The translations under genes and the position numbers were made by a program. From the IMG/VR virus record IMGVR_UViG_3300019366_000026: a stretch of 33,262 nucleotides of DNA; one strand, 5' to 3'. Below the pieces are notes generated by a model that was not told the origin of the DNA, did not search any database, and was given only the letters and a program-made list of their open reading frames with translations. Shown one piece after another: positions 5,321 through 31,469 of this stretch; the first letter of the stretch is position 1, and every line of letters starts with the position of its first letter. The DNA is from an uncultured virus (IMG/VR IMGVR_UViG_3300019366_000026) (taxonomy: Duplodnaviria > Heunggongvirae > Uroviricota > Caudoviricetes).

Positions 5321-5719
5321 TTAATCTCGCTTCACGTCGGGGTCACGCACAATATTGATGACTGTTGGCATTGGGTTCTCAAGATTGACATTAACAGATT
5401 CGCCGAAGCCTTCTTCTCGGCCGAGCGTCGATAGCATATACCGCAACATCTGGCCGTCTGGTTTCTCTTTCCAACCGATAATGTGGCCGGTAGCAGGATC
5501 GATATGGGGTATGCCAAGGGCTATAATACGGGCAGCATCGAGGCACTGGTCGAATAGCTTCATTCGCGAATCCTTTACAGCAGCCTTGAACATTTCGTCT
5601 TCGCGAATCCAGTTATGAATGGTCTGACGCGTCACGCCAAGAATGCCGGCGGTCTGTGTCAGATTGCCGCCGGTCTTTCTTATCGCGTCTTCAAACTCGT
5701 CAAAATTTGGTTTTCGCAT
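5321..5719 (-). CDS. Putative terminase small subunit
   Basis: N-terminal HTH (GNLTQTAGILGVTRQTIHNW), then ..YMLSTLGREEGFGE; size and position upstream of TerL. Confidence 0.7.
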   Translation of the reverse strand: MRKPNFDEFEDAIRKTGGNLTQTAGILGVTRQTIHNWIREDEMFKAAVKDSRMKLFDQCLDAARIIALGIPHIDPATGHIIGWKEKPDGQMLRYMLSTLGREEGFGESVNVNLENPMPTVINIVRDPDVKRD

Positions 5720-5722
5720 ATT

Positions 5723-6202
5723 TTAGGTTTTGGGGTCGTCAAATAATCCAAATTGCTGTTGAGTGGGAGACTGCGGCACGTCGGGTAGCGATGCAAGCAT
5801 ATTAGCGAATTGCCAATTTCGGCAAGTGCTGAAGAGCCGGTTTCTTGATTGAGGGAGTCGCCAATTTATGTATTTCGTGTCGATGAATATCTGCCGCGCA
5901 TTATTGATTTTCAGCTTGACAAATTCGTTGTCAATGATAATCTGACGGCCTACACTGCGCACGAAAGCCACATGGAGATTTTTGTTCCAATCAAAGTTCA
6001 CATCGACGCCACAGAGATAGTAGAATCGACTTTCTTCAAGTTCAAGATTTGGGGGCAATGAACGCATAAATCCACGGACACGCTTGTCATTATGACCGAG
6101 TAGGGATTTCATGCAGTGGGTGTTGAGGTCAACACCATAGACGTATCGCAACCATAGAATTTTGTAGGTGTTGCGAAACTCACAGTATTCTATTTCTACC
6201 AT
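5723..6202 (-). CDS. Hypothetical protein
   Basis: 159 aa ORF with its own promoter; WLRYVYGVDL..HC, YYLCGV and NLH motifs; no family recognised. Confidence 0.7.
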   Translation of the reverse strand: MVEIEYCEFRNTYKILWLRYVYGVDLNTHCMKSLLGHNDKRVRGFMRSLPPNLELEESRFYYLCGVDVNFDWNKNLHVAFVRSVGRQIIIDNEFVKLKINNARQIFIDTKYINWRLPQSRNRLFSTCRNWQFANMLASLPDVPQSPTQQQFGLFDDPKT

Positions 6203-6220
6203 TTGAGTCGTTGATTAAAT

Positions 6221-6301
6221 ATCTTATTTGCAATAACAAAGATACTGAATTTTAATCAATTATGCAAATTTTGGCAAGGTTAAGCCATCATCAAATTTGC
6301 A
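6221..6301 (-). promoter_or_regulatory. Bacteroidetes sigmaA-type promoter with three ATCWTATTTGCA-like boxes
   Basis: Minus strand: TTTG (6265-6268), 20-nt spacer, TATCTTTG (6237-6244); boxes start at 6221, 6255 and 6290. Confidence 0.75.
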
Positions 6302-6314
6302 AATTTTCAGCACC

Positions 6315-7694
6315 TTAATCGTTCAACCCAAACAGCGGAAGGATATCGCCCTGACGGTTGTATGACTGATTGTTCGGGAGGTTGAGATTGAACTCGTAGT
6401 TGATGGCGTTGATGTACTCTTCGCGTGTCAACTCACGGACTTTGTAAGCCCCCCAGCCCCAATAGCCGGATTTGTTATACTGCATGAAAGACTCAAAGCC
6501 GAAACGCTCGAACATAGCCTGAACCTGCTCCTTTGTGAGGAACTTCTGGAAGAACCATTGGCCCTCCTGCATGAAGGCGGTAAGACCGTTCTCATCGAAG
6601 AACTGAACGGTTGTCGTGCAATCCACAGTGTTGCGCTTAGCTCCGTACTGCTTCATTGCAACTTCCTTCGAGCGACCGGACACGAATACCTTGCCACCCA
6701 TCTTTGTGAATAGATTGAGACAGGTCAGTACGGCATCTTCAGCATACTGCGTGTTCACAGAGTTCAGCACTGCGTCGCAGATGGTGTAATCGAACACACC
6801 ACCATTGATTATGCCATTCTCTTTGATGTAGGAAATGAACGCATCAATCATTTCGTGGCCTTTGGCAATTGATATGCCCTTCAGGTTGTGATTGAAGAAT
6901 TCAAGACCGATGGCGTAGCGGTAGCCGAGTTCGCGGCGGAGTTTGTTGATGAACATTGCCTTGCCGCAACCGAAGTCCAAGATCTTCACTTTACGCTTGT
7001 CTTCTTTTTCCAGGTGGGGCACAACCTCACGATAAAGAACTGACCAGTCTATACCCTTGTGACGCGGGGGCTGGGCTCGCCCCTGCATAAAGTCGGCTCG
7101 CTCGATATGCTCATAGTTGAACACTCCGTAGTCTTTCTTGAAGTAGTAGTCGAAGATACCACGCTTGCCTCCCTCGAGGAAGTAGCAATGAATGGGATAG
7201 CCGAGAGTTGCTGCAGCTTTGATGTAGTTGTTTCCGAAGACCACCTCATCGCCACATACGATAGCGCAGAGAGCATCGCCGAATTTAACGATAAGACGGC
7301 AGATGTCTTTCACAATAGAAGCGTTGGCTTCGACAATCTCAAAGTCTGAGGCGGGAATGTCATCGTGAAAAGTCCCGGCTTCACGAGAAGCTTTGCACTT
7401 GCTCAACTTTTCGGGTTCAAGTTCCACGCCATTGTGGACTTGGTTGAAGAGGATTTCAGATTCGATGTCAACACCGCTTATGAAGTAAACCGGTGCTTCC
7501 GTGAGTCCTACAGCCGTTGCGGCCTTGGTACGTTGGTGCCCGGCAACGATTGTCATGTTGTCGCGGTTGACGATAATCGGAAGAATGAAGCCGAGTGTCT
7601 TTAAGCTACCCTGCAACTCCACAAATGCCTCGTCAGTAATCTTACGGGGATTGTAAGATGCTGGTCGGATGTCTGCGAATTTTACGTAATCCAT
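6315..7694 (-). CDS. ParB/Srx-like N-terminal domain fused to a class I SAM-dependent methyltransferase
   Basis: YNPRKI..LGFILPIIVN..IVAGHQR (ParB-like); ILDFGCGK SAM-binding motif; ICDAVLNSV. Confidence 0.85.
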   Translation of the reverse strand: MDYVKFADIRPASYNPRKITDEAFVELQGSLKTLGFILPIIVNRDNMTIVAGHQRTKAATAVGLTEAPVYFISGVDIESEILFNQVHNGVELEPEKLSKCKASREAGTFHDDIPASDFEIVEANASIVKDICRLIVKFGDALCAIVCGDEVVFGNNYIKAAATLGYPIHCYFLEGGKRGIFDYYFKKDYGVFNYEHIERADFMQGRAQPPRHKGIDWSVLYREVVPHLEKEDKRKVKILDFGCGKAMFINKLRRELGYRYAIGLEFFNHNLKGISIAKGHEMIDAFISYIKENGIINGGVFDYTICDAVLNSVNTQYAEDAVLTCLNLFTKMGGKVFVSGRSKEVAMKQYGAKRNTVDCTTTVQFFDENGLTAFMQEGQWFFQKFLTKEQVQAMFERFGFESFMQYNKSGYWGWGAYKVRELTREEYINAINYEFNLNLPNNQSYNRQGDILPLFGLND

Positions 7695-7729
7695 GATTGT
7701 TGTGATATTTAGTCGTTTTGGGGAAATAT

Positions 7730-8452
7730 TTATTCAGGCATTTCAAATACCGTGTCAGAATCCTCTCCACTGTCCTGATCGATAGGCGCGGAATCCTCCA
7801 GTAGGCTCTTAACGAAACCGAAGTTGACACCGGTCTGGTCCACGTAGTCATTGTAGCGACTCACAAGGGCTTCGTATTCCTCCTTGGTTACAGACACGAC
7901 ATACTTGCCGAATGTCAGCATGTTAATTTTCTTCGGAGTAGAACCCTTAATCTTGGTCATTACAGTGTCATCATCGTCAGGATTATAGAACAGACCTTCA
8001 TCGAAGCCGAAATTTACGAGGTTGATTTCATCGTACATTTGCTGGAGCTTGGTGTAGTCGAACTCGCCAAACTCATTGTTATCTTTGATAATCAGTTCCT
8101 TTTCCTCTTCTTCGGATAGGTCGGCCACCGTGACATGAACAATTGGATTTTCGAGCCATTCTTTCCAGTAATCGATTACTGCGTCACGCTGTTTCTCGGT
8201 CATGCCGAGCCACTTTTCGTTCTCCTGAAGGATTACCATCCAATCCATCGGGGTAGTTGTCAGGATTTCCTTGAGAATTGTGGTGCGCTGGTTGCCGGCA
8301 AGCACTACATTGTCTTTGTTGACAATAATGTCGCGGTAATAGAGCATCTTCGGGAAGAGCATTATGCTCTGCTGAAGACGACGCTTTTGCCCCACGACAA
8401 TCTTACGAGGATTGATGGGGTTTATGATAAGTTCTTTGATGTCCTTTTTCAT
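7730..8452 (-). CDS. ParB/Srx-like domain protein (paralogue 2)
   Basis: NPINPRKI..FPKML..IIVN..VLAGNQR..IIKDN..FGEFD. Confidence 0.8.
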   Translation of the reverse strand: MKKDIKELIINPINPRKIVVGQKRRLQQSIMLFPKMLYYRDIIVNKDNVVLAGNQRTTILKEILTTTPMDWMVILQENEKWLGMTEKQRDAVIDYWKEWLENPIVHVTVADLSEEEEKELIIKDNNEFGEFDYTKLQQMYDEINLVNFGFDEGLFYNPDDDDTVMTKIKGSTPKKINMLTFGKYVVSVTKEEYEALVSRYNDYVDQTGVNFGFVKSLLEDSAPIDQDSGEDSDTVFEMPE

Positions 8453-9120
8453 TTGCCGAGAAGTAATTCAGTTAAAAATCCATCACTTATGCCGTCGTGC
8501 TCCTGAAGATATTCATCAAGACGTGCAGAAAGGCCTTTAAATTCTTGGTCTGTCATCTGACATTCCACATAACCGCATTTGAATTTTTCAGGATATGTCT
8601 TGGATAGGTCAAGATTCTTGTCGTTGATTTTGTCGTCGTAGTCGTAGAGGTTCCACGCCACATAGCCGAGGTAGTCGCCGATGGCCTCACGCTCGAAATG
8701 GCGCTTCATTATTTCGATGTCATCTTCGCCGTAGTGGAGATTGTCTTTTATAAGAATCTCTTTCTCTTCCTCGGCAGAAACATTATCGAGTATGCGAACG
8801 AACACTGTGGGCTTTTTCTTCCATTTGGCCCAGAAAGCGAGAAGCGCAGTTTTCTCCTCGTCAGAGGCCATACGGAATTTCTTCTGGTTGAACAGATAAT
8901 CCTCAATCTCATTGTCATCGAGTTCAAGAATTTTGTTCAGGCACTGTACGCGACCGTTACCGCCAACAATTACATCGTCTTGGTTTACGAGAATGGGGCG
9001 CAATTCGAGCATCTTCGGAAATACGAGCAGACTCTCGATCAGCTTTCCCTCCATAAACTCGCTCATGGTACGAGGATTGTCAGGATTGGGTTTAAGTTTT
9101 CGTATGTCTTTTTTATCCAT
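8449..9120 (-). CDS. ParB/Srx-like domain protein (paralogue 1)
   Basis: PNPDNPRTM..FPKMLELRPILVN..IVGGNGR..LIKDN..YGEDD. Confidence 0.8.
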   Translation of the reverse strand: MDKKDIRKLKPNPDNPRTMSEFMEGKLIESLLVFPKMLELRPILVNQDDVIVGGNGRVQCLNKILELDDNEIEDYLFNQKKFRMASDEEKTALLAFWAKWKKKPTVFVRILDNVSAEEEKEILIKDNLHYGEDDIEIMKRHFEREAIGDYLGYVAWNLYDYDDKINDKNLDLSKTYPEKFKCGYVECQMTDQEFKGLSARLDEYLQEHDGISDGFLTELLLGK

Positions 9121-9145
9121 TGTGATATTGATAGTTTTCTAAGCG

Positions 9146-9177
9146 CAAAGATAATCAAAATGCGTAGCTTAGCCAAG
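9146..9177 (-). promoter_or_regulatory. Promoter for the ParB/methyltransferase operon
   Basis: Minus strand: CTTG (9174-9177), 20-nt spacer, TATCTTTG (9146-9153). Confidence 0.65.
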
Positions 9178-9280
9178 TATTTATAGATAAAATAATCAAT
9201 ATGATTAGTTGATAAGGTTAGGGATTGCGCTTTTGGTGATTTTTCACACTTAAAATGATGATTATTTGGGCTTTTTTCGT

Positions 9281-9410
9281 TATCTTTGCACTATGGATAT
9301 TTAGTTTAGAGTCCCTTGCCCTTTTTACTGGGGCAACTGGGGTTTTTGATTAAATATCTTATTTGCATTTAAGTGAGTTAACCCGTGAGGGCCCGCTCAC
9401 TTTCTTTGTT
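9281..9410 (+). ncRNA. Candidate small RNA (promoter -7 box, two hairpins, U-rich tail)
   Basis: TATCTTTG at 9281-9288 (no consensus -33 box); stem TTGCCC/GGGCAA at 9316-9336; stem AAGTGAG/CTCACTT at 9371-9402 capped by CCC-GTGA-GGG; T-rich tail. Confidence 0.4.
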
Positions 9411-9787
9411 TATGGCTCCGGCAGTTTAATGATGTGAAGCCATATCCACGGAAGCCAAATCCGTTTGAGTTTTATCCACCACGAGCACTTGACACTTTTG
9501 GCAAAGAAGAACGTGCGTGAATACTTGCCTCTTGGCACACATGGATTGAACCAGTGTTTGTAACCCATAGCCTCCATCAATGGGATTGATTCTGGCGCCA
9601 CGACTATTGATGGAATTGTCTTGTTGTGGCCGCAGCAACTACCGGTAGTTTTCACGCCATTACTAAGTAGCTCGATAACTTCTTCGACGATGCAAGTATC
9701 TACCCATATCTTTCTTCCGAGTGTTTCGTGGTATATCTCAATCTGATTGTCGAAAGAACCGAGCTCTACATTCTTACAATTACACAT
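9410..9787 (-). CDS. Hypothetical Cys/His-motif protein
   Basis: VDTCI..L..GVKTTGSCCGH motif, possibly metal-binding; follows the radical SAM gene. Confidence 0.65.
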   Translation of the reverse strand: MCNCKNVELGSFDNQIEIYHETLGRKIWVDTCIVEEVIELLSNGVKTTGSCCGHNKTIPSIVVAPESIPLMEAMGYKHWFNPCVPRGKYSRTFFFAKSVKCSWWIKLKRIWLPWIWLHIIKLPEP

Positions 9788-9817
9788 GATGTTTTTTTCG
9801 TTTATTATGGGGGTGTA

Positions 9818-10888
9818 TTAAATTCCTCTGGTTGAATAACTGAGCTGGCTACCACTACATTCGTAAGGCAAGAGAATATCTTCATCTTCGAGCCAAGATC
9901 CGCATAGGTTTCCATTTGGATGGAAGACCATTTCAAAAACCGTATCTGGTGTTTTTTCTTTTTGTGGGTCTATGGCGGAAAGATCTGCGCTCTCCATTAC
10001 GACATCGATATTCTTATACTTGTAAACCTCGCAATAATAGTAATATCCCAACACTTGAGTTATAGGCCGGAAAATATGCGGCATGAGATCAATCTCGCTC
10101 CAGATGTCATCCAACTTAATCTTTTGTTCTTCAAGAAAACGTAACTTCGGAATGTTATGCATTACTGACTTATCGTAATCCATTGTTTCCCGGAATATTA
10201 TATTATCTACCCCCATTTCTCCATAGAAATCCAAATAACGCATCATTGCCTCAATGCTACTGATTCCACTTTTCAGAAGAAGGCAACTTAGGCGTGGCCT
10301 AACATTTCCAGACAAGGCTACTTTTACAACTTCGTGCATCTGCTCATTGCAGAAGTAGCTGTTACTGAATTTCATAATATCCGCATTCACATTCTCAAGA
10401 TAATGCGTTTTGGAAATATTCAGATGATGAAACCCATTTTCAATAATATGGTCTATTATGCGTTTCCCATCAACAATATCGAGTAATCCACTTCCATTAG
10501 TTGTGATTACTCGCTTTCGGAAGTTGTATTTGGAAACAAGTTTTAAGATACGCAGTAGTCGATGGGATTTAGTTGGCTCCCCACCAGTGATAGATATTGA
10601 CGGATTAAGGGGGCGTATGGTTTCCAATACCTCAGCCAACCGGGTAAAATATTCTTCATCATCAGAGATTCTTTCTTTGATGAAAGTCTTGCCTTTGCCC
10701 TCAAATCGCAACTGATCTATACAGAACCGACAGTCTGCATTACACGATTCGTTTACAAATATTGATAGGTTCGCATTCTCATAGACTGACTTCTGCTTAC
10801 CATTAAAGGCAAATGGTTTTGTAATATAGTTCTCAGCATCAAATTCCTTACGTCGTATAGAGCGGAGAACGGAGAATTTAGATTTCAT
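9818..10888 (-). CDS. Radical SAM enzyme
   Basis: CNADCRFC (CxxxCxxC), SITGGEP, ITTNGSGL. Confidence 0.92.
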   Translation of the reverse strand: MKSKFSVLRSIRRKEFDAENYITKPFAFNGKQKSVYENANLSIFVNESCNADCRFCIDQLRFEGKGKTFIKERISDDEEYFTRLAEVLETIRPLNPSISITGGEPTKSHRLLRILKLVSKYNFRKRVITTNGSGLLDIVDGKRIIDHIIENGFHHLNISKTHYLENVNADIMKFSNSYFCNEQMHEVVKVALSGNVRPRLSCLLLKSGISSIEAMMRYLDFYGEMGVDNIIFRETMDYDKSVMHNIPKLRFLEEQKIKLDDIWSEIDLMPHIFRPITQVLGYYYYCEVYKYKNIDVVMESADLSAIDPQKEKTPDTVFEMVFHPNGNLCGSWLEDEDILLPYECSGSQLSYSTRGI

Positions 10889-10905
10889 GTTTGGTATGCT
10901 ATTAA

Positions 10906-11080
10906 AAGCCGATGACCCGCCGTTTCGCTTTTCGCGGCCGTCGAAACCCCATGTGCATCTCGTGCTGAACCGCCGGGGTAGTGGTAACTTATGCGATAGG
11001 CTCTGGCTCCTGTCTATGCGATGTGGCGGAATCTCCAGGTCAAGTGCGAACGTACCATTTGCTGCGGGGTGTGTCGGCTT
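10906..11080 (-). ncRNA. Candidate structured RNA element upstream of the radical SAM gene
   Basis: GC-rich 195-nt gap closed by AAGCCGA/TCGGCTT (10906-10912 with 11074-11080) and a second 7-bp helix (10913-10919 with 11036-11042), plus further short stems. Confidence 0.4.
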
Positions 11081-11083
11081 ATG

Positions 11084-11476
11084 TTATTGAATTTCTTCGC
11101 AATACTCCCATAAAGAGAGTTTGCCTTTTACATTTTCGATTGGTTTGTCAAACTTAATGGGATTGGCAAGAACCCAGTTCCAAACACCTTTCTCGGCCCA
11201 TTCTGATGGGTGGTTTTGAACACAATCGACAATCTCTACACTACCTATAATCGCGGAAGTGGGATATAAGGCCCTATTACTGGAATTATAGAGAAGCGCA
11301 GTACGTGCTACTGGAAGAGGGTAGCAATCCCGTATCTCAGCATAAGGCACTGGAGTTTTCGCTGCGTGAATTAACACTCTTCCCCGGTACGACGTTCTCC
11401 ATGTGCGGTTCTCAATATCCTTGCCGCCCGCGACAATTAAACCGGCCCAAGGTTGCTTTACTGTCAACGCTTTCAT
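11084..11476 (-). CDS. ASCH domain protein
   Basis: ALTVKQPWA.LIV.G.KDIENRTW..YRG.VLIHA; GKLSLW. Confidence 0.92.
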   Translation of the reverse strand: MKALTVKQPWAGLIVAGGKDIENRTWRTSYRGRVLIHAAKTPVPYAEIRDCYPLPVARTALLYNSSNRALYPTSAIIGSVEIVDCVQNHPSEWAEKGVWNWVLANPIKFDKPIENVKGKLSLWEYCEEIQ

Positions 11477-11685
11477 TGCTTGCTTTCTTCAAATAATTGC
11501 TTCTGCTTGCGCAATAACTGTTCGTGTGTATGTTTGTGTATAGCCGGGAGCCTATAACTAACATCGGAACTGCCTGGAGTGGGGATTGCTTTGGAACTTG
11601 AACAACCTCCGGCAACCAAGACTATACCGAGCGCGACTAATACGCTCAGGACATGCGATGAATGAATTTGGTCTTTTATGCTCAT
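11473..11685 (-). CDS. Putative small lipoprotein
   Basis: From MSIKD (ATG 11685): hydrophobic VLSVLVALGIVLVAGG followed by Cys (lipobox-like). Confidence 0.5.
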   Translation of the reverse strand: MSIKDQIHSSHVLSVLVALGIVLVAGGCSSSKAIPTPGSSDVSYRLPAIHKHTHEQLLRKQKQLFEESKQ

Positions 11686-14440: not shown

Positions 14441-15157
14441 TTACATCACCAGTTCCCAGTCGTTAGCAAATACGTCGGCAATTGAGGGAGTCCACGAATC
14501 GGCTCGTCCAGTATCAAGATTGAAAATGAGTCACTGCGCAACATAGTCTATGTGGTCGCCGGCGGCGAGGATATGACGCTTTGCTTCCTCCGGGAGCGAC
14601 TGCATATTCGGTATTTTTTCAGACGTGATGTGGGCCGGCACTTGCTTGAACACCATGAGACTTTTACCATTCCATCTGCTACGACGGATAGAGAAGCCTT
14701 CGCGGAGCATAGGCAGGATTTGCTCGAATGAGAGACCTGAAGGCCGACACTCTTCGTTCCCCTCCATACAGGATTGGCGAAGGGCTGCAAGATTGAAGTA
14801 CGCCTCCATAGTGTCGAGTTGAGCGACAAGGAAAGCACGAGTTCCGAGTGGGAGAGCCTGAAAGTCTTTGCCGTCGTTCTGGAAGTATATGAAATTTCTG
14901 AGTTTCTTACGTTTCAGATTAAGATCAGAGAGCTCGATATTGAGTCGGTCGAGTGGTGTTTCAGACACCTTGTAAGCGTCCTCAAATACTTCTGCCGGCG
15001 ACCACGACTCGTAGTTGTCAGGGTAAACTACATGGTAGCCTTTGTTGTCGGAATATTCCTCGACATAGGCGTTTTCTCGGATAAGGCCACGCTTGTATGC
15101 CTCTCCGTAGGTCATCGGCTCTGCCTTGACCGTCTTTGTTCCAGTGTACTGTTTCAT
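14441..15157 (-). pseudogene. Multi-domain Tad2 (DUF2829)-like anti-defence gene interrupted by an in-frame TGA at 14531-14533
   Basis: From MKQYTGTK (ATG 15157). LSFEQIL..LREG..IRRSRWNGK precedes the TGA; the frame continues LIFNLDTGRADSWTPSIADVFANDWELVM to TAA at 14441, giving the W.PS..D..A.DW signature. Confidence 0.75.
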
Positions 15158-15394
15158 ATGTTCTTTTTTGGGGTTGTTATTTGTCTGATGCTCTTTAAGT
15201 ATTGTTTCTTGAAGCATCTTCAGGTCGTTCATTGCGCAGCGTAATGTGGCGTTCGCTTTATTGAGCATATTCCTTGATTGCTGTCCCAGATCAGCCTTTA
15301 TTTGCTGTAACCATTGACAGTCATGCTCATACTCTTGAAGCATTTCGTCGATGTAACCGACACCAAGGGTCGATATAAGTTCGTCTGTTTCCAT
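15158..15394 (-). CDS. Hypothetical coiled-coil ORF in frame with the Tad2-like gene
   Basis: METDEL.. (ATG 15394) has no stop before MKQY; the junction is A-rich like a leader. Confidence 0.45.
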
Positions 15395-15681
15395 TATTCG
15401 TGTGGTTTGGATGATAGATTGAATAGTTTTCTGAACCAAGCAAAGCGAATGTTTTCAAACCAATCGTCATTTGGATCTGGTTGATTCTCTTGTATGAATC
15501 GGTTGTAACATTCCGGGCAATACCATTGGTCCAGAACAGCCACATAGAATCCATTCGTAGGCATCGCAGAACAATAGTCACAAATACCCACTGCGCCCAT
15601 GTGGCCGAGTTTGCCTACAAGTTCGCTTCTCGATATCTCTATGACCTTGAACCCGGCTGGATTTTCGATAATCTGAGCCAT
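15394..15681 (-). CDS. Hypothetical zinc-finger protein
   Basis: From MAQII (ATG 15681); GICDYC..WYCPEC. Confidence 0.7.
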   Translation of the reverse strand: MAQIIENPAGFKVIEISRSELVGKLGHMGAVGICDYCSAMPTNGFYVAVLDQWYCPECYNRFIQENQPDPNDDWFENIRFAWFRKLFNLSSKPHE

Positions 15682-16123: not shown

Positions 16124-16309
16124 TTATTTCTTTTTGGGATTGTCTATTTTATTGCACAGCCAGTGTCGGTATCTTTCCCAGCCGGTCAGAACACTATTGC
16201 TGATTGTTCCAAGAAACACAAAGAACATCAAGAATGGCGAGAATATGAATGACTGCACGGCCGCAAGTATTTTGCCGAACCGTATCTGTATTTTGGGTTT
16301 TCTTTTCAT
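16124..16309 (-). CDS. Small hypothetical membrane protein
   Basis: 61 aa with a central hydrophobic stretch; ATGA overlap. Confidence 0.55.
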   Translation of the reverse strand: MKRKPKIQIRFGKILAAVQSFIFSPFLMFFVFLGTISNSVLTGWERYRHWLCNKIDNPKKK

Positions 16310-17118
16310 TGCTTGAAAATGTTATAATCCTGGTTTACGAAATGGTGAGGCAACTTTTCACGGTCAAGATTGAGATATTCCACCATGCTGTCCTTGATGT
16401 AGAATTTACTTCCACGAGTATCGGCTTTCAGCATTTCAAAGAGGAATTGAATCTCGCCGGGCTTGTAGGTTCGTTTTCCACCACTCAACAAGCCAACTTT
16501 AATGAGATCACACCAACCTGACACGGCATTGATCATTGCATAAGATGCCTGCACTGATATTACCGGCTCTATGCTTGCGAAAGTCTTAAATCCTCGCTTG
16601 TGCAATTCAAGCATAGCCTTTACCCGGTCAACATTGAGCGATGCTTTAGGCTCTTCTTCATCACACCCGGTAAAAGTGAATCCGACCGCGATCAGTTTCT
16701 TTTTCTCGGGATGAATGATTTGGTTTTCATCGAACAGCCAATAATGCAGGAAATCCGCTCTTTTCGTAAGGATTTGTACGGGTACATTATGATTTATGGC
16801 TAGACAGATAGCGTTCATATGGAAATCCAATGTTTCAGGAAGCATAGGATCAGTGGTAAATGAAAAGAACAGACCATACTTCTTGAGTTGGTCGATATTC
16901 TTTTCCATTTCCGCGATAAACACATCTGTTGCATGTTCCTCATCTTTGAAGCACTTCTTCAATGTTGGAGCCGGACTCCAGACATGGCTCATTACGCCCC
17001 GTTTGCAATAACAATAGTTGCAATCATTCGAGCAGCCATTGTAAAAGTTGCATGCCCACGGAGCGTATTCGGCAGCCTTGCCGGTGGGATTATATATTGC
17101 TTTTCCTTTGAAACTCAT
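16306..17118 (-). CDS. Radical SAM protein (SPL/DUF5131-like phage type)
   Basis: ACNFYNGCSNDCNYCYC, FSFTTDP, ILTKR, ASIEPV. Confidence 0.85.
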   Translation of the reverse strand: MSFKGKAIYNPTGKAAEYAPWACNFYNGCSNDCNYCYCKRGVMSHVWSPAPTLKKCFKDEEHATDVFIAEMEKNIDQLKKYGLFFSFTTDPMLPETLDFHMNAICLAINHNVPVQILTKRADFLHYWLFDENQIIHPEKKKLIAVGFTFTGCDEEEPKASLNVDRVKAMLELHKRGFKTFASIEPVISVQASYAMINAVSGWCDLIKVGLLSGGKRTYKPGEIQFLFEMLKADTRGSKFYIKDSMVEYLNLDREKLPHHFVNQDYNIFKQ

Positions 17119-17894: not shown

Positions 17895-18091
17895 TCCTCA
17901 ACTTCGCAAAGACCCTGGGATAAAGCATAATCATACAGACTATCCGCAGTCAGACAGTCATGCCGATTCCAATTATGCTTAACGTATCTTTCCACGACGT
18001 CATCTTCGATGAAACACCATGGATAATTCTCTTTCTGTGCTTGGTGGAGTCTTTCGGCGCAAGCCTTAATTTCCTCTTATGAAGGGTTCAT
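17891..18091 (-). pseudogene. 66-codon ORF with an in-frame TAA at codon 5
   Basis: MNPS*EEIKACAERLHQ...LSQGLCEVEE*; the ATG follows the promoter leader, and the terminal TGA overlaps the next ATG. Confidence 0.65.
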
Positions 18092-18116
18092 TGTGAGTTG
18101 ATTTTTGATTAAATGT

Positions 18117-18165
18117 ATCTTATTTGCAATGCTCAAAATTACGCAAAATTTATCAAATACGCAAG
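18117..18165 (-). promoter_or_regulatory. Promoter with ATCWTATTTGCA-like boxes
   Basis: Minus strand: CTTG (18162-18165), 20-nt spacer, TAATTTTG (18134-18141); boxes at 18117 and 18152. Confidence 0.7.
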
Positions 18166-18933: not shown

Positions 18934-19692
18934 TCAATCAAATAAAGAATATTGAATTGGTTCTTGGGGTTTCTTGGGTTGAATGACGGCGGCTGGAGTC
19001 TTCACCTCAGCAGATTCAACCTCAATTTGCTTCATCATAGCCATACCGGAGCGATATGAGAATGATTCCTCTTTCTTCATTGCCCTTGCACTTGGGATAC
19101 CAATTATGTTCAAGGTTTCATTGATTTTCCATCCCTCGCGATAATCGGTGGGATCGAGGCTGTTGCCACAGACAACCTCACCTCGGACTCCATGTATTAT
19201 GAAATTACATACAGTCATTAAACAGCAGATTCTATCCATGTCTTGGGCACAGCAATAGTTTCCGGGATGTAGTACATGAGAGGCCAACAACATTCTTCCG
19301 CTGCCACAGCAACAATCCATTACTGACTCACCTCCATTCTCTCCAGGATCAGTTATTTTAGCCATGAAATCACAAATGTGCTTAGGGGTAAAGAATTGTC
19401 CCGTCCATTGTTTTTTCATTGTTCCTGAAAGGTAACTCATATATACATCTCCGAGAATATCATACCACTCTTTGGTTTTCAGCACTTCGTTCATTGTCGT
19501 TACCCATGCGCTGAATAATTCCATACACGCCGTGCTTTCATCTAAGGTAAATGGCCTATCTAATTTTGAGAAAGTTACATCGAATCCGGCAATGACATAC
19601 TCCATAAACCTCTCAAATAGAGTATAGGGTTCTAATCTGGTGCGGTACTTTTCAAAGACCGCAATCAGTGGTTTTGTAGGGTCTTGAATCAT
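18934..19692 (-). CDS. N6-adenine DNA methylase-like protein lacking a visible NPPY/F motif
   Basis: DILGDVY, GQFFTP, MDCCCGSGRMLL, GNSL; no motif IV afterwards. Confidence 0.8.
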   Translation of the reverse strand: MIQDPTKPLIAVFEKYRTRLEPYTLFERFMEYVIAGFDVTFSKLDRPFTLDESTACMELFSAWVTTMNEVLKTKEWYDILGDVYMSYLSGTMKKQWTGQFFTPKHICDFMAKITDPGENGGESVMDCCCGSGRMLLASHVLHPGNYCCAQDMDRICCLMTVCNFIIHGVRGEVVCGNSLDPTDYREGWKINETLNIIGIPSARAMKKEESFSYRSGMAMMKQIEVESAEVKTPAAVIQPKKPQEPIQYSLFD

Positions 19693-20447
19693 AATTTGAT
19701 AGGATTTACATTCATAGTGTTAAGATTTACAAACGCCCCTTGGTAGTCAATGGAACTATTGTAGATAAGTTTCCAGAGAAGATCGCAGCCGACCTGTGCC
19801 AAGAAAGAGTTGATGAATAAATCCTGCTTTCTCAAGGCCTCCGCCAATGAGCAACTCGGGCCACTATCTTCGTCTTTTACGGAAGTGAGGTCAAACATTT
19901 CATCGACACACTTCAATGCCGGTTCAGTTTTAGTTTTGCGACTTTTGGGCTGCTTCACTTTCCCGATGGTTCCTAAAACTACCTGCCCTCGGTCAAGCTG
20001 ATTTCCGAAATCGAGCCAATAAATAGCCTTGGTATCATCGATTCCTGATGCTTGTTTACGAAGCCATTTGCCTATGGTAATGCGCGAGGCAACATTATCA
20101 ACGCAGGTGATGGTAATGTTGGCTATACTGTTTTTTTCCCCATATCGCTCCTGCACAGCCTCCCAATCAACACCAAAGAAAGTGTTGATTCTTGTAACAA
20201 GAACATTCGCTTTATTTTGCCCTATGTCGGCGCCACGGAATAGTTGGCGGCCTATGTTTGCATCAGTAACAACATCATCGTCATAGACCCGTACATAAAG
20301 TCCAGGGTGGCCGAGCTTGTATAGTGCGTAGTCCATTCGGGCAAGTGCACTAAGAACCTGACTACCCGTACCTCCGGCTCCGACTAAGTTTACTGTAACC
20401 CTATGGCTGGGGTTTAAGATATATTCGTGGGTAAAATGCGTTTTCAT
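19689..20447 (-). CDS. PRTRC system ThiF/E1-like protein
   Basis: LVGAGGTGS, D.D.V...NIGRQLF, NKA, CVDN, YWLDFGN, GPSCSLAEAL.KQDLFIN. Confidence 0.92.
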   Translation of the reverse strand: MKTHFTHEYILNPSHRVTVNLVGAGGTGSQVLSALARMDYALYKLGHPGLYVRVYDDDVVTDANIGRQLFRGADIGQNKANVLVTRINTFFGVDWEAVQERYGEKNSIANITITCVDNVASRITIGKWLRKQASGIDDTKAIYWLDFGNQLDRGQVVLGTIGKVKQPKSRKTKTEPALKCVDEMFDLTSVKDEDSGPSCSLAEALRKQDLFINSFLAQVGCDLLWKLIYNSSIDYQGAFVNLNTMNVNPIKL

Positions 20448-21139
20448 TTTAGTATTTGTTGGAGAGTCGTTTTGTGCGGGTTTAATTTATTCGTTGGAAA
20501 GGGTTCCCCGGTTTTGATGCAATGCTTCGTGATGACAGCAAGGTTTCCATCAATAGGAGTGCTGCCAATGAGATGTGAGAACTCTGAATTCCAAAATAGA
20601 TTTTCCCAATATTCTATGGCTTCAATGTATGTCAGTCTTGATGGCTTCTTCGCTCTTGCAGAACCGAGGCAAACTTTACCGTCACCGTAAACATTGAAGA
20701 ATGGTGCGTGGTACAGACGATTGGTCGGATGCTTGCCTTTGAAAGCAAATACTGATAGTACATTTCCATCTGCAATATATACGAGGCCCGGCATGAGCAT
20801 ATCCCCTTCAGGAATACCAAGGCTTTCCACAAAGAACAGATGTCGCTTCTGAGGTGGGTTGTACCAGACCATCTTTGTCTTGCCCGTGGTCGTATCAGCA
20901 TAGAGTAATGTCTTGGGGATAACTCCATGAAATCCCTTTTCGATCTCATCGTTGTCTTCTGCAAGAGCACTAATGATATTAGTGATACAGGATTTAGACA
21001 AGGGGCTTCCTGCTCCCATCTTTCCATTTTCTATTCCTCGCTGCTCAAGATAGACACTTCGGTCTGTATCGCATCGATACACTATAATCGCCATTTCAGG
21101 GATATAGGAGCTTGATAATTTTTCAGATAATCCGTTCAT
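20444..21139 (-). CDS. PRTRC system protein B (E2-like)
   Basis: MVWYNPPQKR.LFF, PGLVY, LYHAPFFNV...G.VCLGS, FWNSEFSH. Confidence 0.88.
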   Translation of the reverse strand: MNGLSEKLSSSYIPEMAIIVYRCDTDRSVYLEQRGIENGKMGAGSPLSKSCITNIISALAEDNDEIEKGFHGVIPKTLLYADTTTGKTKMVWYNPPQKRHLFFVESLGIPEGDMLMPGLVYIADGNVLSVFAFKGKHPTNRLYHAPFFNVYGDGKVCLGSARAKKPSRLTYIEAIEYWENLFWNSEFSHLIGSTPIDGNLAVITKHCIKTGEPFPTNKLNPHKTTLQQILK

Positions 21140-22299
21140 ATTTTATCTATCGCAGTTCTGAGATTGTTAAACCATTCACACCAACGAACTGTGAATTTGG
21201 CTGTTTGTAGTTCTTTTTTCACTTGCTCATCAATAATTTGACTATCATATAATCCTTGGATTTCAAGAGAGCCGCCATCGCTATTCAAGGATTCTTCAGC
21301 TCGTTCTGCGATGGGATCAAAGATGTCATAAACTACAGCGAAGAGTCTTTCAAAGTCAATAATGTTGTCATTGTTGGCATAATCTTCAAGCGTGCAAGAA
21401 TCTGGCGTTCTTAGGTAGTTACCGATATTGTCTGTCTGGTGGAGTTCGATGCCATTCTTAATTTCTTTCAATACTTGCCATATGGAGCTATCGATATTGT
21501 ACTCGGTTAAGGCTGCATCCAATTCTTTCCTCATCTTAGGAATATCGGTAGGACATCCACTAACTTCCTTTATGAGTTCATATATTGCGCCCTCATTATA
21601 GGACTCCATCGTTTCGCGATAAATCGTAGCGTACTCATCATCACCTTCACTTGCCAATATGTCATCTATCATTTCAACACCCCAATCGCCAAGAGCAATG
21701 GATATATCCATATGCTCAGATGGTGCATTAAGTCCACATACGCAGATTAGATAGCCAAGACAATCGGACACAAGTGGCTTTAGTCTGTCTGGCAACTTTT
21801 GATAAAATCTTACAGGAAGAAAGAATAGGGTATAATATTCAAATGAGCACAGTTCATATTCTACGAAAACGAGCCTATTCGAGTTATGATCATAGTCAAT
21901 GGATATTTCGCGATTGTCAGGTTTACAATTTTGCAACAACTCGAAGAGTTTACATAAATCATGCTTGGGGTTTCCACTTGGCTCATAGGCAAATGAACGC
22001 TCATGCACCAAGCAATATTTTTGAACACCTTTCTGCAAATACTGGATATTCTCCCGTGCGTCAATCTCAATATCTTCAGGAAGATGCCAAATTATTTGAT
22101 TCCCATTAGTTGACTGCCCGAAAGCAGCATTACTCTCGGGCAGATCAACGACAGGTATGGCATTTAGACATTCACTCAAAAAGGCGTATTGGTTGCTTTC
22201 TTGGGGAGCAAAACATCTTCTCTCTCTTGGATGCGCCTTGACTTTAGCCGTTCGCGTTCGTTGAGGAGAATTTTTCCGATTTTTGTGAGTAGTTGCCAT
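21136..22299 (-). CDS. Probable PRTRC-associated protein (protein F position)
   Basis: 387 aa acidic ORF between PRTRC C and B; assignment by synteny. Confidence 0.55.
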   Translation of the reverse strand: MATTHKNRKNSPQRTRTAKVKAHPRERRCFAPQESNQYAFLSECLNAIPVVDLPESNAAFGQSTNGNQIIWHLPEDIEIDARENIQYLQKGVQKYCLVHERSFAYEPSGNPKHDLCKLFELLQNCKPDNREISIDYDHNSNRLVFVEYELCSFEYYTLFFLPVRFYQKLPDRLKPLVSDCLGYLICVCGLNAPSEHMDISIALGDWGVEMIDDILASEGDDEYATIYRETMESYNEGAIYELIKEVSGCPTDIPKMRKELDAALTEYNIDSSIWQVLKEIKNGIELHQTDNIGNYLRTPDSCTLEDYANNDNIIDFERLFAVVYDIFDPIAERAEESLNSDGGSLEIQGLYDSQIIDEQVKKELQTAKFTVRWCEWFNNLRTAIDKI

Positions 22300-22327
22300 T
22301 CTTCTTTACTTTTTATGGGCGATGCGC

Positions 22328-22537
22328 TCATCCCTTGGTACCTACAGTGGTTTTGAACTCATACACGGCCTTGTCGTTCTCAATCTTGGGACCGAACACG
22401 TTTGAGGTTGTGAGTTCAGGATACTGGTTGGAGTAGTAGGCCATAACTTCTTCCGGGGAGAGTTGGGGATTCGGGTCTGTGAGTGTCTGATTCTTGTGCT
22501 TGAACACTCGCGGGTATTTAGTTGTATTCAGTGCCAT
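22328..22537 (-). CDS. PRTRC system protein C (ubiquitin-like)
   Basis: RVF..LTDPNP.LSPEEV..YYS.QYPELTT..YEF.TTVGTKG with a C-terminal Gly. Confidence 0.92.
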   Translation of the reverse strand: MALNTTKYPRVFKHKNQTLTDPNPQLSPEEVMAYYSNQYPELTTSNVFGPKIENDKAVYEFKTTVGTKG

Positions 22538-22540
22538 GGC

Positions 22541-23764: not shown

Positions 23765-23786
23765 CTTGTTTCGTTTTTGATTAAAC

Positions 23787-23865
23787 ATCTTATTTGCATA
23801 TACAAAAGTAATCAAAAATAATCATATCTGCAAATTATAGAGCGATTATTTTAATCATATTCGCA
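23787..23865 (-). promoter_or_regulatory. Promoter of the WYL_2-PRTRC operon with three boxes
   Basis: Minus strand: TTTG (23831-23834), 20-nt spacer, TACTTTTG (23803-23810); boxes at 23787, 23821 and 23854. Confidence 0.78.
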
Positions 23866-30863: not shown

Positions 30864-30922
30864 TTTGAATTGTTTTTATTGATATTTAGTTTGTGCCGCT
30901 AATGCGGCGGTTCTTATTTGCA

Positions 30923-31132
30923 TTATTTGGTGCGGTGCACCGATACGGTGAAAGTGCGTCGGTCGTACTTGACTTCCGCTTCCCATCCAATCCGGGCCAT
31001 CTCCTTGCGGAATTTGCTACATACCGCAGTGACAGAACTGCTCTGCTCAATGGGGAAGATTGCCGTTTCTCCGATAGAGAGCGCTCTAATAGTCGGAGAG
31101 ATTGGCAGTTTCTTCACTGCTATACTTTCCAT
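30923..31132 (-). CDS. Small putative DNA-binding protein (Cro/Xis position)
   Basis: From MESIA (ATG 31132, preceded by AAAGGAGGT); near the start of the operon divergent from the repressor. Confidence 0.6.
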   Translation of the reverse strand: MESIAVKKLPISPTIRALSIGETAIFPIEQSSSVTAVCSKFRKEMARIGWEAEVKYDRRTFTVSVHRTK

Positions 31133-31227: not shown

Positions 31228-31250
31228 CTTTCTGCTGTTTTTGATTTAAA

Positions 31251-31366
31251 CTCTTATTTGCATTTAAGCGAGAAATTGCTTATCTTTGTGGCGGTCTGAG
31301 CCGTTATCGTAGTGCAAATATAATCATTTTCGCAATAATAGCAAAATTAGAATAATCATATTTGCA
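31251..31366. promoter_or_regulatory. Genetic switch region with face-to-face promoters and boxes
   Basis: Plus: TTTG (31257), 20 nt, TATCTTTG (31281-31288). Minus: TTTG (31342-31345), 19 nt, TATATTTG (31315-31322). Boxes at 31251, 31323 and 31355. Confidence 0.7.
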
Positions 31367-31469
31367 AGTTCTGCTTAGATTTAACATTTTTTAATCATCC
31401 TTGCAACTTCACGATGTGTTGTTGCAGAAATGATAAGAAAAGAAAAGTAGTTATAATACAATAGCAAAT

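Follow-up and report, generated by a model that had tools for sequence, protein, structure and literature searches.

The segment at 9281-9411 raises two questions: what it encodes, and why parts of it recur ahead of several phage operons. The window analyzed here is the whole stretch of DNA, 33,262 nucleotides from the uncultured virus IMGVR_UViG_3300019366_000026. The answer that we favor, and consider probable, is that 9281-9411 of the plus strand is a conserved, structured small RNA of ~115 nt, which would act in trans as an antisense to the leaders of phage operons, probably as a repressor. Such a structured small-RNA gene, one per phage, appears to be a feature of a family of gut Bacteroidales prophages (Muribaculaceae-type). 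The anatomy of this gene, its conserved structure and strand, and its complementarity to the leaders, with the co-variation of the two, are described below.

Anatomy and conserved structure of the candidate small-RNA gene

The locus has the following features.

9257..9289, plus strand: predicted small-RNA promoter, with the −7 box TATCTTTGC at 9281-9289 and GATG, which is non-consensus, at the −33 position (9257-9260)
9294..9411, plus strand: candidate small-RNA gene of ~110-118 nt, its start placed by the distance from the −7 box, its end by the U-rich tail
9295..9359, plus strand: stem-loop SL1, placed from folds and the alignment, which sequesters the 5′ end of the RNA
9356..9370, plus strand: seed and linker ATCTTATTTGCATTT, a single-stranded stretch that carries AUCUUAUUUGCA
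9371..9411, plus strand: stem-loop SL2, a GNRA-capped terminator hairpin with a U-rich tail
9145..9153, minus strand: −7 box of the divergent promoter of the ParB-like gene at 8449-9120, whose leader has no tag

The small RNA is predicted to be driven by a host-type Bacteroidota promoter. The box TATCTTTG(C) is found at 9281-9289 of the plus strand, ahead of both hairpins, where the initial annotation had placed it. The −7 consensus used here is TANNTTTGY, as given in an excerpt of PMC12632263. The window contains 18 instances of this pattern where 11.2 would be expected. One box alone is thus unremarkable, and the weight rests on its positional conservation. The box is kept in all 25 homologues (24 scanned together, and L097 added from a separate inspection), where it takes the forms TA(TC/AC/AT/CC/CT)TTTG(C/T), varies only at its two N positions, and sits 2-5 nt 5′ of position 1 of the covariance model. 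The −33 position had been called non-consensus. This is true of the window and its closest relatives, the 3 of the 25 in which the element is missing, and expression there might therefore be weak or conditional. The other homologues nonetheless have it, 19-20 nt from the −7 box: TTTG is present in 9 and xTTG in 12 of the 24, and L097, assessed by eye, brings those with TTTG or TTG to 22 of 25. The divergent homologues have the consensus TTTG, at the same 19-20 nt.

There is one copy of the gene per phage. Covariance model R1 scores the window RNA at 118.9 bits and matches 5 of the 151 genomes of the family searched. The 25 distinct homologues were drawn from prophages and viral contigs and represent perhaps 8-10 independent lineages. 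Genome records with homologues include those of isolates labelled Barnesiella sp. WM24 and Muribaculaceae bacterium IMSAGC_006. Two matches from a pattern scan (L078 and L081) were left out as chance, being without the promoter box and unmatched by the model. The RNA is oriented antisense to the phage genes, in the same direction as the CI-like repressor gene (31470-31961), and its U-rich tail (9401-9411) meets a convergent gene at that gene's stop codon (9410-9412).

SL1 consists of a basal stem (9295-9306 with 9348-9359), a middle stem (9308-9315 with 9339-9346) and an apical stem (9316-9322 with 9330-9336), the last of which differs in sequence lineage by lineage. SL2 has an outer stem (9371-9378 with 9395-9402) and an inner CCC/GGG stem (9382-9384 with 9389-9391) closed by the loop GUGA (9385-9388), so that the core CCC-GTGA-GGG spans 9382-9391 and is followed by TTTCTTTGTTT. 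The loop is GUGA or GGGA among the homologues. Both are GNRA-type on the plus strand only, which bears out an earlier observation on the GTGA loop. SL2 (9371-9402) followed by UUUCUUUGUUU has the form of a Rho-independent terminator, and U-rich tails are found in 25 of 25 homologues.

The segment 9346-9367 had been described as a linker between the two hairpins. Only its 3′ half is single-stranded; the 5′ half, GATTAAATATCT (9348-9359), pairs with 9295-9306 in the basal stem of SL1. The seed, (A)UCUUAUUUGCA, is invariant and lies in the single-stranded linker, and UUAUUUGC within the seed and linker is unchanged in 25 of 25 homologues. The mean unpaired probability of the seed is 0.46-0.93, compared to 0.25-0.40 for the whole RNA.

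The predicted structure is strand-specific. The plus strand folds at −45.1 kcal/mol (z = −5.9) and the minus strand at −32.6. The minimum free energy is lower on the plus strand in 13 of the 14 distinct versions, comprising all 11 close versions together with G032 and G033, and is about equal between the strands in G116 (−38.4 for plus vs −39.0 for minus). For the 11 close sequences, 90.2% of the cells are paired on the plus strand and 77.4% on the minus strand. Moreover, the alignment of homologues contains 99 G·U cells and 22 A·C cells. With G·U so far above A·C, the plus strand is taken as the functional RNA strand.

Covariation had been proposed as a check on the structure, and both stem-loops covary strongly. 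RNAalifold on the 11 sequences gives 34 pairs, 7 of them compensatory; across the 25 distinct homologues, 27 of the 34 pairs are changed on both sides. These include 10 of 11 pairs in the basal stem of SL1 and 5 of 8 in the outer stem of SL2, where 99.5% of the cells are paired. Overall, 90.0% of the cells are paired compared to 73.7% after shuffling, and the covariation score is 0.495 compared to 0.232, and 0 of 500 shuffles reach either of these values or the 27 pairs changed on both sides. These statistics overstate the significance, because the homologues are related and alignment A3 was itself fitted to the model. Control alignments that were slid out of register have 35-52% of cells paired. 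The MAFFT alignment (A1) misaligns the apex of SL1, and the apex was therefore judged from single-sequence folds and the model-based A3.

Other readings of the locus were considered and set aside. SL1 with its T-run could be an intrinsic terminator that gives an RNA of ~50 nt; in every homologue, however, the T-run downstream of the first hairpin pairs inside SL1, its partner in the window being AGAGU (9308-9312) of the same stem. No ORF of at least 50 aa is present in 9121-9409 on either strand, and no small ORF of the region is conserved, the short frames ATGGATATTTAG (plus strand) and TTG CCC CAG TAA (minus strand) being absent as conserved frames from the homologues. A type I toxin-antitoxin pair is not indicated either, as no small toxin ORF overlaps or adjoins the RNA.

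The region is represented in 18 sequencing runs, all as Logan assembled contigs, which carry no strand or end information. Metatranscriptome contigs from four runs (unstranded assemblies, contigs up to 25 kb) cover 5500-11500 continuously. The contigs of one metatranscriptome run break at 9403/9424, beside SL2; this break comes from a single study and is therefore no evidence for an RNA end.

Complementary tags in the leaders of phage operons

The linker is complementary to a leader tag, TGCAAATAAGAT. The 12-nt tag proper, with which the seed would pair, is UGCAAAUAAGAU, and most phage operons have it at or beside the start of their mRNA. With at most one mismatch, TGCAAATAAGAT occurs 8 times in the window, 7 of them on the coding strand, against 0.34 expected. 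The promoter-linked tags begin 4-5 nt after a −7 box, and the ATG follows 30-38 nt from the first base of the tag. An ORF of at least 25 aa starts within 10-59 nt at 15 of the 19 tag sites examined. The candidate targets in the window are as follows.

6211..6232, minus strand: target tag, 22/22 complementary; promoter TATCTTTGT at 6236-6244; 8 nt to the ATG at 6202
18102..18128, minus strand: target tag, after the −7 box TAATTTTG; ~14 nt to the ATG at 18090; cofold ddG −14.9
23773..23799, minus strand: target tag, 26/27 complementary; promoter TACTTTTGT at 23802-23810; 12 nt to the ATG at 23764
31237..31268, minus strand: target tag, 29/32 complementary; 13 nt to the ATG at 31227; cofold ddG −16.3
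30881..30924, minus strand: two-box target upstream of an AAA_24 gene (ATG at 30863); cofold ddG −13.6
7704..7713, minus strand: weak possible target, 10 nt complementary to the 5′ arm of the RNA; 10 nt to the ATG at 7694

The initial annotation had noted that the 22-mer TTGATTAAATATCTTATTTGCA (9346-9367) matches one further site perfectly and three others nearly, all on the minus strand and ~9-14 nt before a start codon. All four matches were recovered: 6211-6232 with no mismatch, 23777-23798 with 1, 31241-31262 with 3 (the match had been reported to 31270), and the site reported at about 18105-18128, which matches over 18102-18128 at 25 of 27 positions with a 2-nt insertion. Shuffled sequences are expected to give 0.00 such matches, and the copies end 8-14 nt before the ATG. 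In the nearest genome (2.7 Mb), all 7 matches to the 22-mer are in a prophage contig and in one orientation. In the prophage of this nearest relative, complementarity of 18-32 nt (E < 0.01) is found at 13 sites, each of them on the coding strand.

The tag at 6211-6232 heads an operon with a 159-aa gene first, which includes SNF2 and the large terminase; its cofold ddG is −17.1 compared to −4.0 ± 1.9 for shuffled targets. The tag at 23773-23799 (cofold ddG −21.3) precedes an operon with a WYL_2 protein first, followed by the PRTRC cassette. The early operon has a longer leader, within which the tag at 31237-31268 lies, and the complementarity extends toward the 5′ arm of SL2.

The 5′ part of the RNA, GATATTTAGTTT (9296-9307), also recurs as had been noted, at 30881-30892 and, for ten bases, at 7704-7713. 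In the first case the leader contains, in order, a half tag TGCAAATAAGA (30912-30922), a hairpin, and AAACTAAATATC (30881-30892), the last being complementary to the 5′ arm of the RNA, and both boxes pair in the cofold. The second match, in the leader of the ParB-methyltransferase gene, has E = 2.8 and is not significant alone.

Across the targets, the net gain on cofolding is −13.6 to −21.3 kcal/mol; shuffled targets gain −2.9 to −4.6. No inhibitory structure that would need opening shows up when the A/U-rich leaders are cofolded. The basal stem of SL1 takes up half of the 22-mer, so the extended pairing needs this stem to be opened. In addition, the tag is 20-35 nt upstream of the AUG, and a duplex of the core only would therefore leave the start codon uncovered.

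Co-variation of seed and tag among phage lineages

From phage to phage, a changed seed goes with a correspondingly changed leader tag, which defines at least three specificity groups. Here CUUUAUUUGC goes with GCAAATAAAG, and AACUUAUUUGCUU with AAGCAAATAAGTT. Phages G116 and G157 share the seed CUUUAUUUGC, and the tag in their leaders is GCAAATAAA(G); 12 of the 13 tag copies in G157 are of this type, and one leader of G116 matches its RNA at 24/24 positions, the SL2 arm included. G032 has the seed AACUUAUUUGCUUAUAAGCAAGUUU, with TAAGCAAATAAGTT in six leaders and matches of up to 30/30. In a cross-matrix of 8 RNAs and 8 phages, sites of at least 12 nt for the G032 RNA number 6 in its own phage and 0-1 elsewhere, and the G032 phage is matched by no foreign RNA. 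The sequences thus present an accessible seed, several complementary mRNAs, and a seed that changes with its targets, as would be predicted for a trans-acting small RNA. The proposal that a plus-strand RNA pairs with operon leaders gains support from this co-change, as it does from the conserved box, the covariation and the G·U asymmetry.

Seed and tag could also co-vary if all copies, including the one in the RNA gene, were kept alike by gene conversion or by a shared sequence-specific protein. In another reading, which we consider unlikely but worth weighing, the RNA acts mainly in cis: placed where early and late genes meet, it would be antisense to read-through from the upstream operon and terminate transcription in both directions, so blocking or processing that read-through. 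The tag would then be a DNA operator or an element close to the promoter, bound by a phage protein, and the complementarity a by-product of the RNA gene holding one copy of it. In each of the four phage types examined, the RNA indeed converges on the stop codon of the upstream gene and diverges from the promoter that comes next, and the next genes in three divergent phages are an HTH regulator and a small terminase, marking an early/late junction. The fixed distance of the promoter-linked tags from the −7 box would also suit an operator. Moreover, the tag resembles the −33 part of a repeated phage promoter cassette (TTGCATATATGAT), which leaves room for a DNA-binding protein recognizing both, and the window encodes several HTH regulators. 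However, an operator role is not obvious for the copies of the tag that lack a promoter and lie within an operon or follow a stop codon. The tag has no palindromic symmetry, and its copies all have the same orientation to transcription, on the strand opposite the RNA gene in 40 of 40 copies of four further phages (15 against 0 in the cross-matrix). Some leaders match their cognate RNA past the tag into the 5′ arm of SL2 (24/24, 30/30, and 27 nt with 1 mismatch), an arm that varies between phages and is compensated in the 3′ arm, and the seed itself is located in the accessible linker. A further idea, that the tag is a parS-like site for the adjacent ParB-like genes, was rejected, as the divergent phages have no ParB-like neighbor.

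Proposed function and relation to known systems

From these features we infer the transcription of the small RNA, the sign and timing of its regulation, and any role in immunity. In the trans-acting mechanism that we favor, the seed would pair with the 12-nt tag, and the pairing would extend into the flanking stem arms for a total of 18-32 nt. In leaders that are A/U-rich and without a Shine-Dalgarno sequence, this long duplex, 8-25 nt 5′ of the AUG, would block ribosome loading; alternatively, it may trigger cleavage of the double-stranded region. The RNA would thus be a genome-wide brake on phage gene expression, beside the protein repressor, and the specificity of the brake would differ among phage lineages.

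The same pairing could instead activate or stabilize the mRNAs, by shielding their 5′ ends or timing lytic expression, which we regard as rather improbable. Pairing at the extreme 5′ end of the mRNA could shield it from 5′-end-dependent decay, the start codon lies outside the core tag, and the promoter of the RNA is of the same host type as those of the operons, with nothing to mark the RNA as lysogeny-specific. Against this, cofolding of the A/U-rich leaders reveals no inhibitory structure for an activator to open, the extended duplexes reach within 8-14 nt of the AUG, and the RNA is oriented as the CI-like repressor gene, opposite all lytic genes; the known phage antisense RNAs of this kind repress. 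It is highly improbable that the locus makes no functional RNA and consists of DNA hairpins or terminators with a decayed copy of the leader cassette: a single plus-strand box could be a chance match given its frequency in the window, the tag copy at this locus has no ORF after it and no Rfam family matches, but the box is at the same place even in phages with unrelated neighbor genes, most pairs have compensatory changes, and the G·U excess and GNRA loops fit the plus strand only.

A parallel with the RNA-based immunity of P1 c4 and P4 CI had been suggested. The Rfam scan gave no match that would make the RNA a member of an Rfam family or a homologue of either: nothing reached the gathering score in the whole window, and in 9100-9500, at E values up to 10, there were only 6 hits, to unrelated families and at chance level. 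To our knowledge, a c4 covariance model exists in Rfam. A blastn search of 8449-10888 against phage records found no match, and no description of the small RNA or the tag was found in open-access papers and preprints.

The c4 RNA of P1 and P7 (immI immunity) is a small structured phage RNA with exposed stretches that pair near the ribosome-binding region of a leader and repress it, and differences in these stretches set the immunity specificity among related phages. It is processed from the transcript of its own target and controls one operon (icd-ant). The RNA described here likewise has an exposed stretch complementary to leaders, and its three seed/tag groups resemble the specificity differences of c4. 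In contrast to c4, it has its own predicted promoter on the opposite strand, it matches ~10-15 operon leaders of a genome of ~80-90 kb, and its host is of another phylum. No homology to c4 in sequence or structure was found with Rfam, and the likeness to c4 or P4 CI is one of mechanism only. The P4 CI and N15 CB RNAs are small, stable immunity RNAs that pair with repeated complementary sequences in phage transcripts; they are excised from the sense transcript and act within one operon, by premature termination. The RNA described here, in comparison, has a separate antisense gene, and its predicted targets are the 5′ tags of many operons, with no homology to these RNAs detected.

Among Bacteroidales mobile elements, CTnDOT encodes RteR, a small RNA acting in trans to turn down the operon of the element that encodes it. 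RteR, by contrast, is carried by a conjugative transposon, targets one operon only and has no repeated tag in leaders; it is not known to be related in sequence. The Bacteroidota are without Hfq, and small-RNA base-pairing in these bacteria is only starting to be worked out. As far as we know, the regulatory RNAs of their phages are almost unexplored.

The predicted gene architecture is the same as that of intergenic small RNAs of Bacteroides thetaiotaomicron such as GibS, which have a sigma-ABfr promoter, their own start, a Rho-independent terminator and extended unpaired seeds, as described in an excerpt of PMC7366714. That excerpt reports a canonical promoter for 76% of the intergenic candidates and 5′ UTR lengths with a mode of 23 nt and a median of 32 nt (PMC7366714), which agree with the tag-to-ATG distance of 30-38 nt in the present analysis. 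Those RNAs are chromosomal regulators of host metabolism, whereas the RNA described here is phage-borne and its predicted targets are phage operon leaders; no sequence relationship was found.

More tentatively, we suggest the possibility of a genome-wide leader-tag regulon in these Bacteroidales prophages of 65-95 kb, in which almost all operon mRNAs of the phage would start with the 12-nt tag and one antisense RNA, expressed alongside the protein repressor, would read it and silence the whole lytic programme and exclude superinfecting relatives, with changes in seed and tag creating heteroimmune groups. The antisense controls of P1, P4, P22 and lambda each act on one operon. If the proposal is true, immunity by RNA would bear on all operons at once, and not on one antirepressor operon, and one phage RNA that fits the tag of 10-15 operon leaders would give a temperate phage of 80-90 kb a compact global switch. 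The covariance model provides an annotation marker for this group of prophages, and the seed/tag pairs could serve as orthogonal RNA regulators for Bacteroidales engineering. For the phages themselves, the lineage-specific seed/tag pairs would be a testable code for phage-phage exclusion in the Muribaculaceae of the mouse gut.

Genomic setting of the predicted RNA locus

The window is part of a temperate phage, with genes for a large terminase, an SNF2 helicase, ParB-like and methyltransferase proteins, a PRTRC cassette and several HTH regulators. Nearly all of the long ORFs are located on the minus strand, and clearly annotated plus-strand ORFs are rare. The features bearing on the predicted small RNA (about 115 nt) are as follows (window positions).

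289-nt gap holding the RNA locus, between a 125-aa gene (9410-9787) and two ParB-like paralogues (8449-9120 and 7730-8452)
9281-9289, plus strand: -7 promoter box
9294-9411, plus strand: predicted small RNA
9295-9359, plus strand: first stem-loop (SL1)
9356-9370, plus strand: linker, bearing the seed
9371-9402, plus strand: GNRA-capped second stem-loop (SL2)
31470-31961, plus strand: CI-like repressor ORF (163 aa), with matches to phage repressor families

The same prophage is present in the nearest genome (G001), on a 100.7-kb contig, with 100% identity across 9121-9409. Plus-strand -7 boxes at 31281 (31281-31289) and 32322 (within 32296-32330) oppose early minus-strand promoters, and the leader downstream of the latter box carries a degenerate form, AGCAAATATGAAG, of the operon-leader tag (see below). 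Together with the plus-strand repressor ORF, the region 31281-32330 looks like a divergent lysis-lysogeny switch.

Elsewhere in the window, the protein at 14531-15439 has crAss001_48-related and Tad2-like (Thoeris anti-defence) domains, the PRTRC cassette at 19689-23164 is complete (ThiF, prokaryotic E2, prokaryotic ubiquitin and PRTRC_E); the two radical-SAM genes are located at 9818-10888 and 16306-17118. A repeat of about 22-24 nt (TCAGTGTTAACCNCGTTTACACTG) has four copies at 25143-25253, each internally palindromic, with spacings of 21, 44 and 22 nt. The copies, located within ORF 24467-25537 or close to it, resemble iterons or an origin-like array of protein-binding sites.

A conserved gene-like unit on the antisense strand

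Homologues were collected through a neighboring protein, with DNA patterns in metagenome, genome and viral collections, and with a covariance model of the RNA. One pattern search gave 27 hits, representing 19 distinct sequences (17 real homologues and 2 chance matches), and the covariance model finds matches in 5 of 151 genomes of the host family. Muribaculaceae and other Bacteroidales are named in the titles of records with pattern matches. One copy of the RNA gene is found per phage, and 25 distinct versions were aligned.

All of the sequence features in the initial annotation were confirmed, among them the plus-strand promoter box, TATCTTTG(C), at 9281-9289. In all 25 versions, the plus (antisense) strand has the motif TAnnTTTGY directly 5' of the modelled RNA (24 by script, and locus L097 by inspection). 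The boxes vary at the free positions alone (TATC, TAAC, TAAT, TACC or TACT, then TTTG and C or T) and agree with the published promoter consensus TANNTTTGY (PMC12632263). At -33, 9 versions have TTTG at a distance of 19-20 nt and 12 have xTTG at 20 nt (from a count of 24, with L097 by eye). Both are absent from the window and its two closest relatives, in agreement with the non-consensus -33 reported for the window. The three most divergent homologues are in phages that share no detectable neighbor genes with the window. They keep the layout of the locus: the upstream gene and the RNA converge at the stop codon of that gene, and the next promoter is divergent from the RNA. In these phages the promoter serves an HTH regulator and then a small terminase.

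The predicted plus-strand fold of 9294-9412 has an energy of -45.1 kcal/mol (z = -5.9; none of 200 shuffles is equally stable), compared to -32.6 for the minus strand. In SL1, 9295-9306 are predicted to pair with 9348-9359, and AGAGUCCC with GGGGUUUU; the sequence of the apical stem is lineage-specific. SL1 is followed by the single-stranded linker, SL2 and a U-rich tail. The core of SL2 is CCC-GTGA-GGG (9382-9391), followed by TTTCTTTGTTT. Its loop is GUGA or GGGA in the homologues and is of the GNRA type on the plus strand alone, as had been noted for the window. In 11 close versions, the minimum free energy is -40 to -52 on the plus strand and -23 to -39 on the minus strand, with the plus strand lower in every case; among three divergent versions it is lower in two and about equal in one.

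The hairpins proposed from the single sequence are conserved among the homologues. RNAalifold predicts 34 pairs for the 11 close sequences, 7 of them with compensatory changes. In the alignment of all 25, 90.0% of the cells are paired (73.7% after shuffling; 35-52% in slid controls), both-side changes are seen in 27 of the 34 pairs, and covariation scores 0.495 (0.232 after shuffling). None of 500 shuffles reaches any of these three values, a count not to be read as a probability since the alignment had been fitted to the model, and its related sequences represent perhaps 8-10 independent lineages. The outer stem of SL2 is gap-free and 99.5% paired, with both-side changes in 5 of 8 pairs; its arms read GUGAGU/GCUCAC, GCGAGU/ACUCGC, GCAAGU/ACUUGC, GCAGGC/GUCUGC or GCAGAUC/GGUCUGC. 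The paired fraction is also higher on the plus strand, at 90.2% versus 77.4% for the close sequences. For all 25, there are 99 G·U but 22 A·C cells, giving 90.0% versus 80.5%, and this wobble-pair asymmetry therefore indicates the plus strand as the RNA strand.

The promoter box, structured body and terminator form a conserved gene-like unit on the antisense strand, and we consider the existence of the small RNA very probable.

Leader tags and their co-variation with the seed

The 22-mer at 9346-9367 is repeated, as the initial annotation stated, at 6211-6232 (0 mismatches), 23777-23798 (1) and 31241-31262 (3), where shuffles give an expectation of none. A fifth copy, at 18102-18128, has a 2-nt insertion. 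On the minus strand it reads TGCAAATAAGATATTTAATCAA. At 6232, 18128 and 23798 it begins 4-5 nt past a Bacteroidota -7 box (TAnnTTTG), which has TTTG or CTTG (-33) 20 nt farther upstream, and ends 8-14 nt ahead of an ATG. Located between -7 box and ATG, the repeat is the first part of the operon 5' leader at these sites. The copy at 31262 is within a longer leader. A half copy at 30922 is followed by a hairpin and then AAACTAAATATC, the complement of the RNA 5' part. This part, GATATTTAGTTT (9296-9307), is repeated at 30881-30892, and 10 of its bases recur at 7704-7713. Only the copy at 9346-9367 lacks both a promoter upstream and an ORF downstream.

The 12-nt core of the repeat (the tag), TGCAAATAAGAT, occurs 8 times in the window with at most one mismatch, 7 times on the coding strand (0.34 expected). 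In the G001 prophage contig, the 11-mer TGCAAATAAGA has, at the same threshold, 20 sites on the coding strand and 1 on the other. All 7 matches to the 22-mer in the entire 2.7-Mb G001 genome are within this contig, in a single orientation. An ORF of at least 25 aa begins 10-59 nt downstream of 15 of the 19 tag sites examined. At promoter-linked sites the ATG follows the first tag base by 30-38 nt, a distance that agrees with 5' UTRs in B. thetaiotaomicron, whose measured lengths have a mode of 23 nt and a median of 32 nt (PMC7366714).

Near-identical cassettes of about 60 nt serve as the operon promoters (TTGCRTAnATGATTATTTTTGATTAnnTTTG, followed by the tag), located in the window at:

6236-6275, promoter cassette
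23802-23840, promoter cassette
31314-31366, promoter cassette

Many more are found in related-prophage stretches (L009-L013 and L025-L028). The cassette spacer holds a direct repeat of TGATTA, likely a protein operator. In the first ORF behind the 18128 leader (18076-18090, minus strand), the fifth codon is TAA; the G001 prophage (L009:14592-14792), although nearly identical, has TCA there and an open 66-aa frame. Another tag copy in G001 (L011:2778-2851; contig C35 42778-42851, plus strand) has 27 nt complementary to the RNA and is directly followed, on the coding strand, by a GC-rich hairpin and TTTGTTG, with no downstream ORF. This copy may represent a short sense transcript or a 3' end bearing a binding site, for example a decoy. 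At L012:12093-12157 (G001 C35 ~72100-72157), a tag copy and ATG come directly after a coding-strand hairpin, GTGGGTGAG-GAAA-CTCGCCCAC, whose GNRA loop is sense-oriented.

Within the linker, UUAUUUGC is invariant in all 25 versions, and the mean unpaired probability of the seed is 0.46-0.93, compared to 0.25-0.40 for the entire RNA. The related prophage has 13 sites complementary to the RNA (18-32 nt, E < 0.01), all on the coding strand and centered on RNA positions 49-86, a region running from the 3' arm of the SL1 base through the linker into the 5' arm of SL2. The RNA thus has an accessible invariant seed and many complementary sites at the 5' ends of operon leaders.

The seed and the leader sites co-vary by lineage. 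In phages with seed CUUAUUUGC, the tag reads GCAAATAAG in 15/16, 8/8 and 3/3 copies (counting that of the RNA gene itself). Among other phages, G157 has seed AACUUUAUUUGC and GCAAATAAA in 12 of 13 tag copies, G116 has seed UCUUUAUUUGCAUAUAAGCAGAUC and a 24/24 match in one of its own leaders, and G032 has seed AACUUAUUUGCUUAUAAGCAAGUUU and TAAGCAAATAAGTT in six of its own leaders, one matching 30/30. In an 8x8 matrix of RNA probes and phages, the G032 probe finds 6 sites of 12 nt or more in its cognate phage and 0-1 in the others, the G032 phage has no match to any foreign probe, and opposite-strand matches total 4 over the 64 cells. The RNA 5' arm shows a similar but weaker pattern (7 sites in its own phage versus 1 in a foreign one). 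The orthologous leader of a ParB-like gene has C changed to T where the RNA has G changed to A.

The pairing with several operon leaders proposed initially is also predicted by cofolding. With the opening of SL1 accounted for, the net gain for the window RNA with its five leaders is -13.6 to -21.3 kcal/mol, compared to -2.9 to -4.6 for shuffled targets (sd 1.5-1.9, best -10.5).

In the main alternative, a phage protein would recognize the tag as DNA, with the RNA acting in cis alone, at the early/late junction. The tag follows the -7 box at a fixed position and is similar to the -33 portion of the repeated cassette. However, there are also tags without promoters, and the tag is non-palindromic with all of its copies in one orientation. 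Moreover, some leader matches run on into the SL2 5' arm of their own RNA, which varies between phages and is compensated inside SL2.

Putative control of the leaders in trans

Regulation of the leaders in trans by the RNA is, on balance, the reading that we favor, with less assurance than the existence of the RNA. The RNA would be transcribed by the host RNA polymerase, and pairing would begin between its linker and the tag, at the 5' end of the mRNA. From there the duplex would extend into the stem arms, where the leader permits, and would block ribosome loading on the A/U-rich leaders or cause cleavage, and most phage operons would be lowered simultaneously. Repression is a less certain element than either the RNA or its action in trans, and the RNA may instead activate the leaders. 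A purely DNA-level explanation of the locus is at odds with the wobble-pair asymmetry and with the conservation of the promoter box.

The RNA gene has the same orientation as the CI-like repressor gene, opposite to the lytic genes, an arrangement compatible with expression during lysogeny. In that case, the seed/tag groups would be immunity specificities, although this immunity role is likewise less certain than the RNA or its regulation in trans.

By mode of action, the antisense immunity RNAs c4 of P1/P7 and CI of P4 are among the closest known systems, as is RteR, an RNA of the Bacteroides element CTnDOT. The gene architecture is similar to that of the canonical intergenic sRNAs of B. thetaiotaomicron (PMC7366714). 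A type I antitoxin RNA was ruled out, as a toxin ORF is absent. The Rfam family search places the RNA in no family, and no published description of it was found in the full text of open-access papers and preprints.

The system would represent phage antisense-RNA control in a new form, with one tag across most operon leaders of a large Bacteroidales prophage, and with seed/tag groups that appear to co-evolve.
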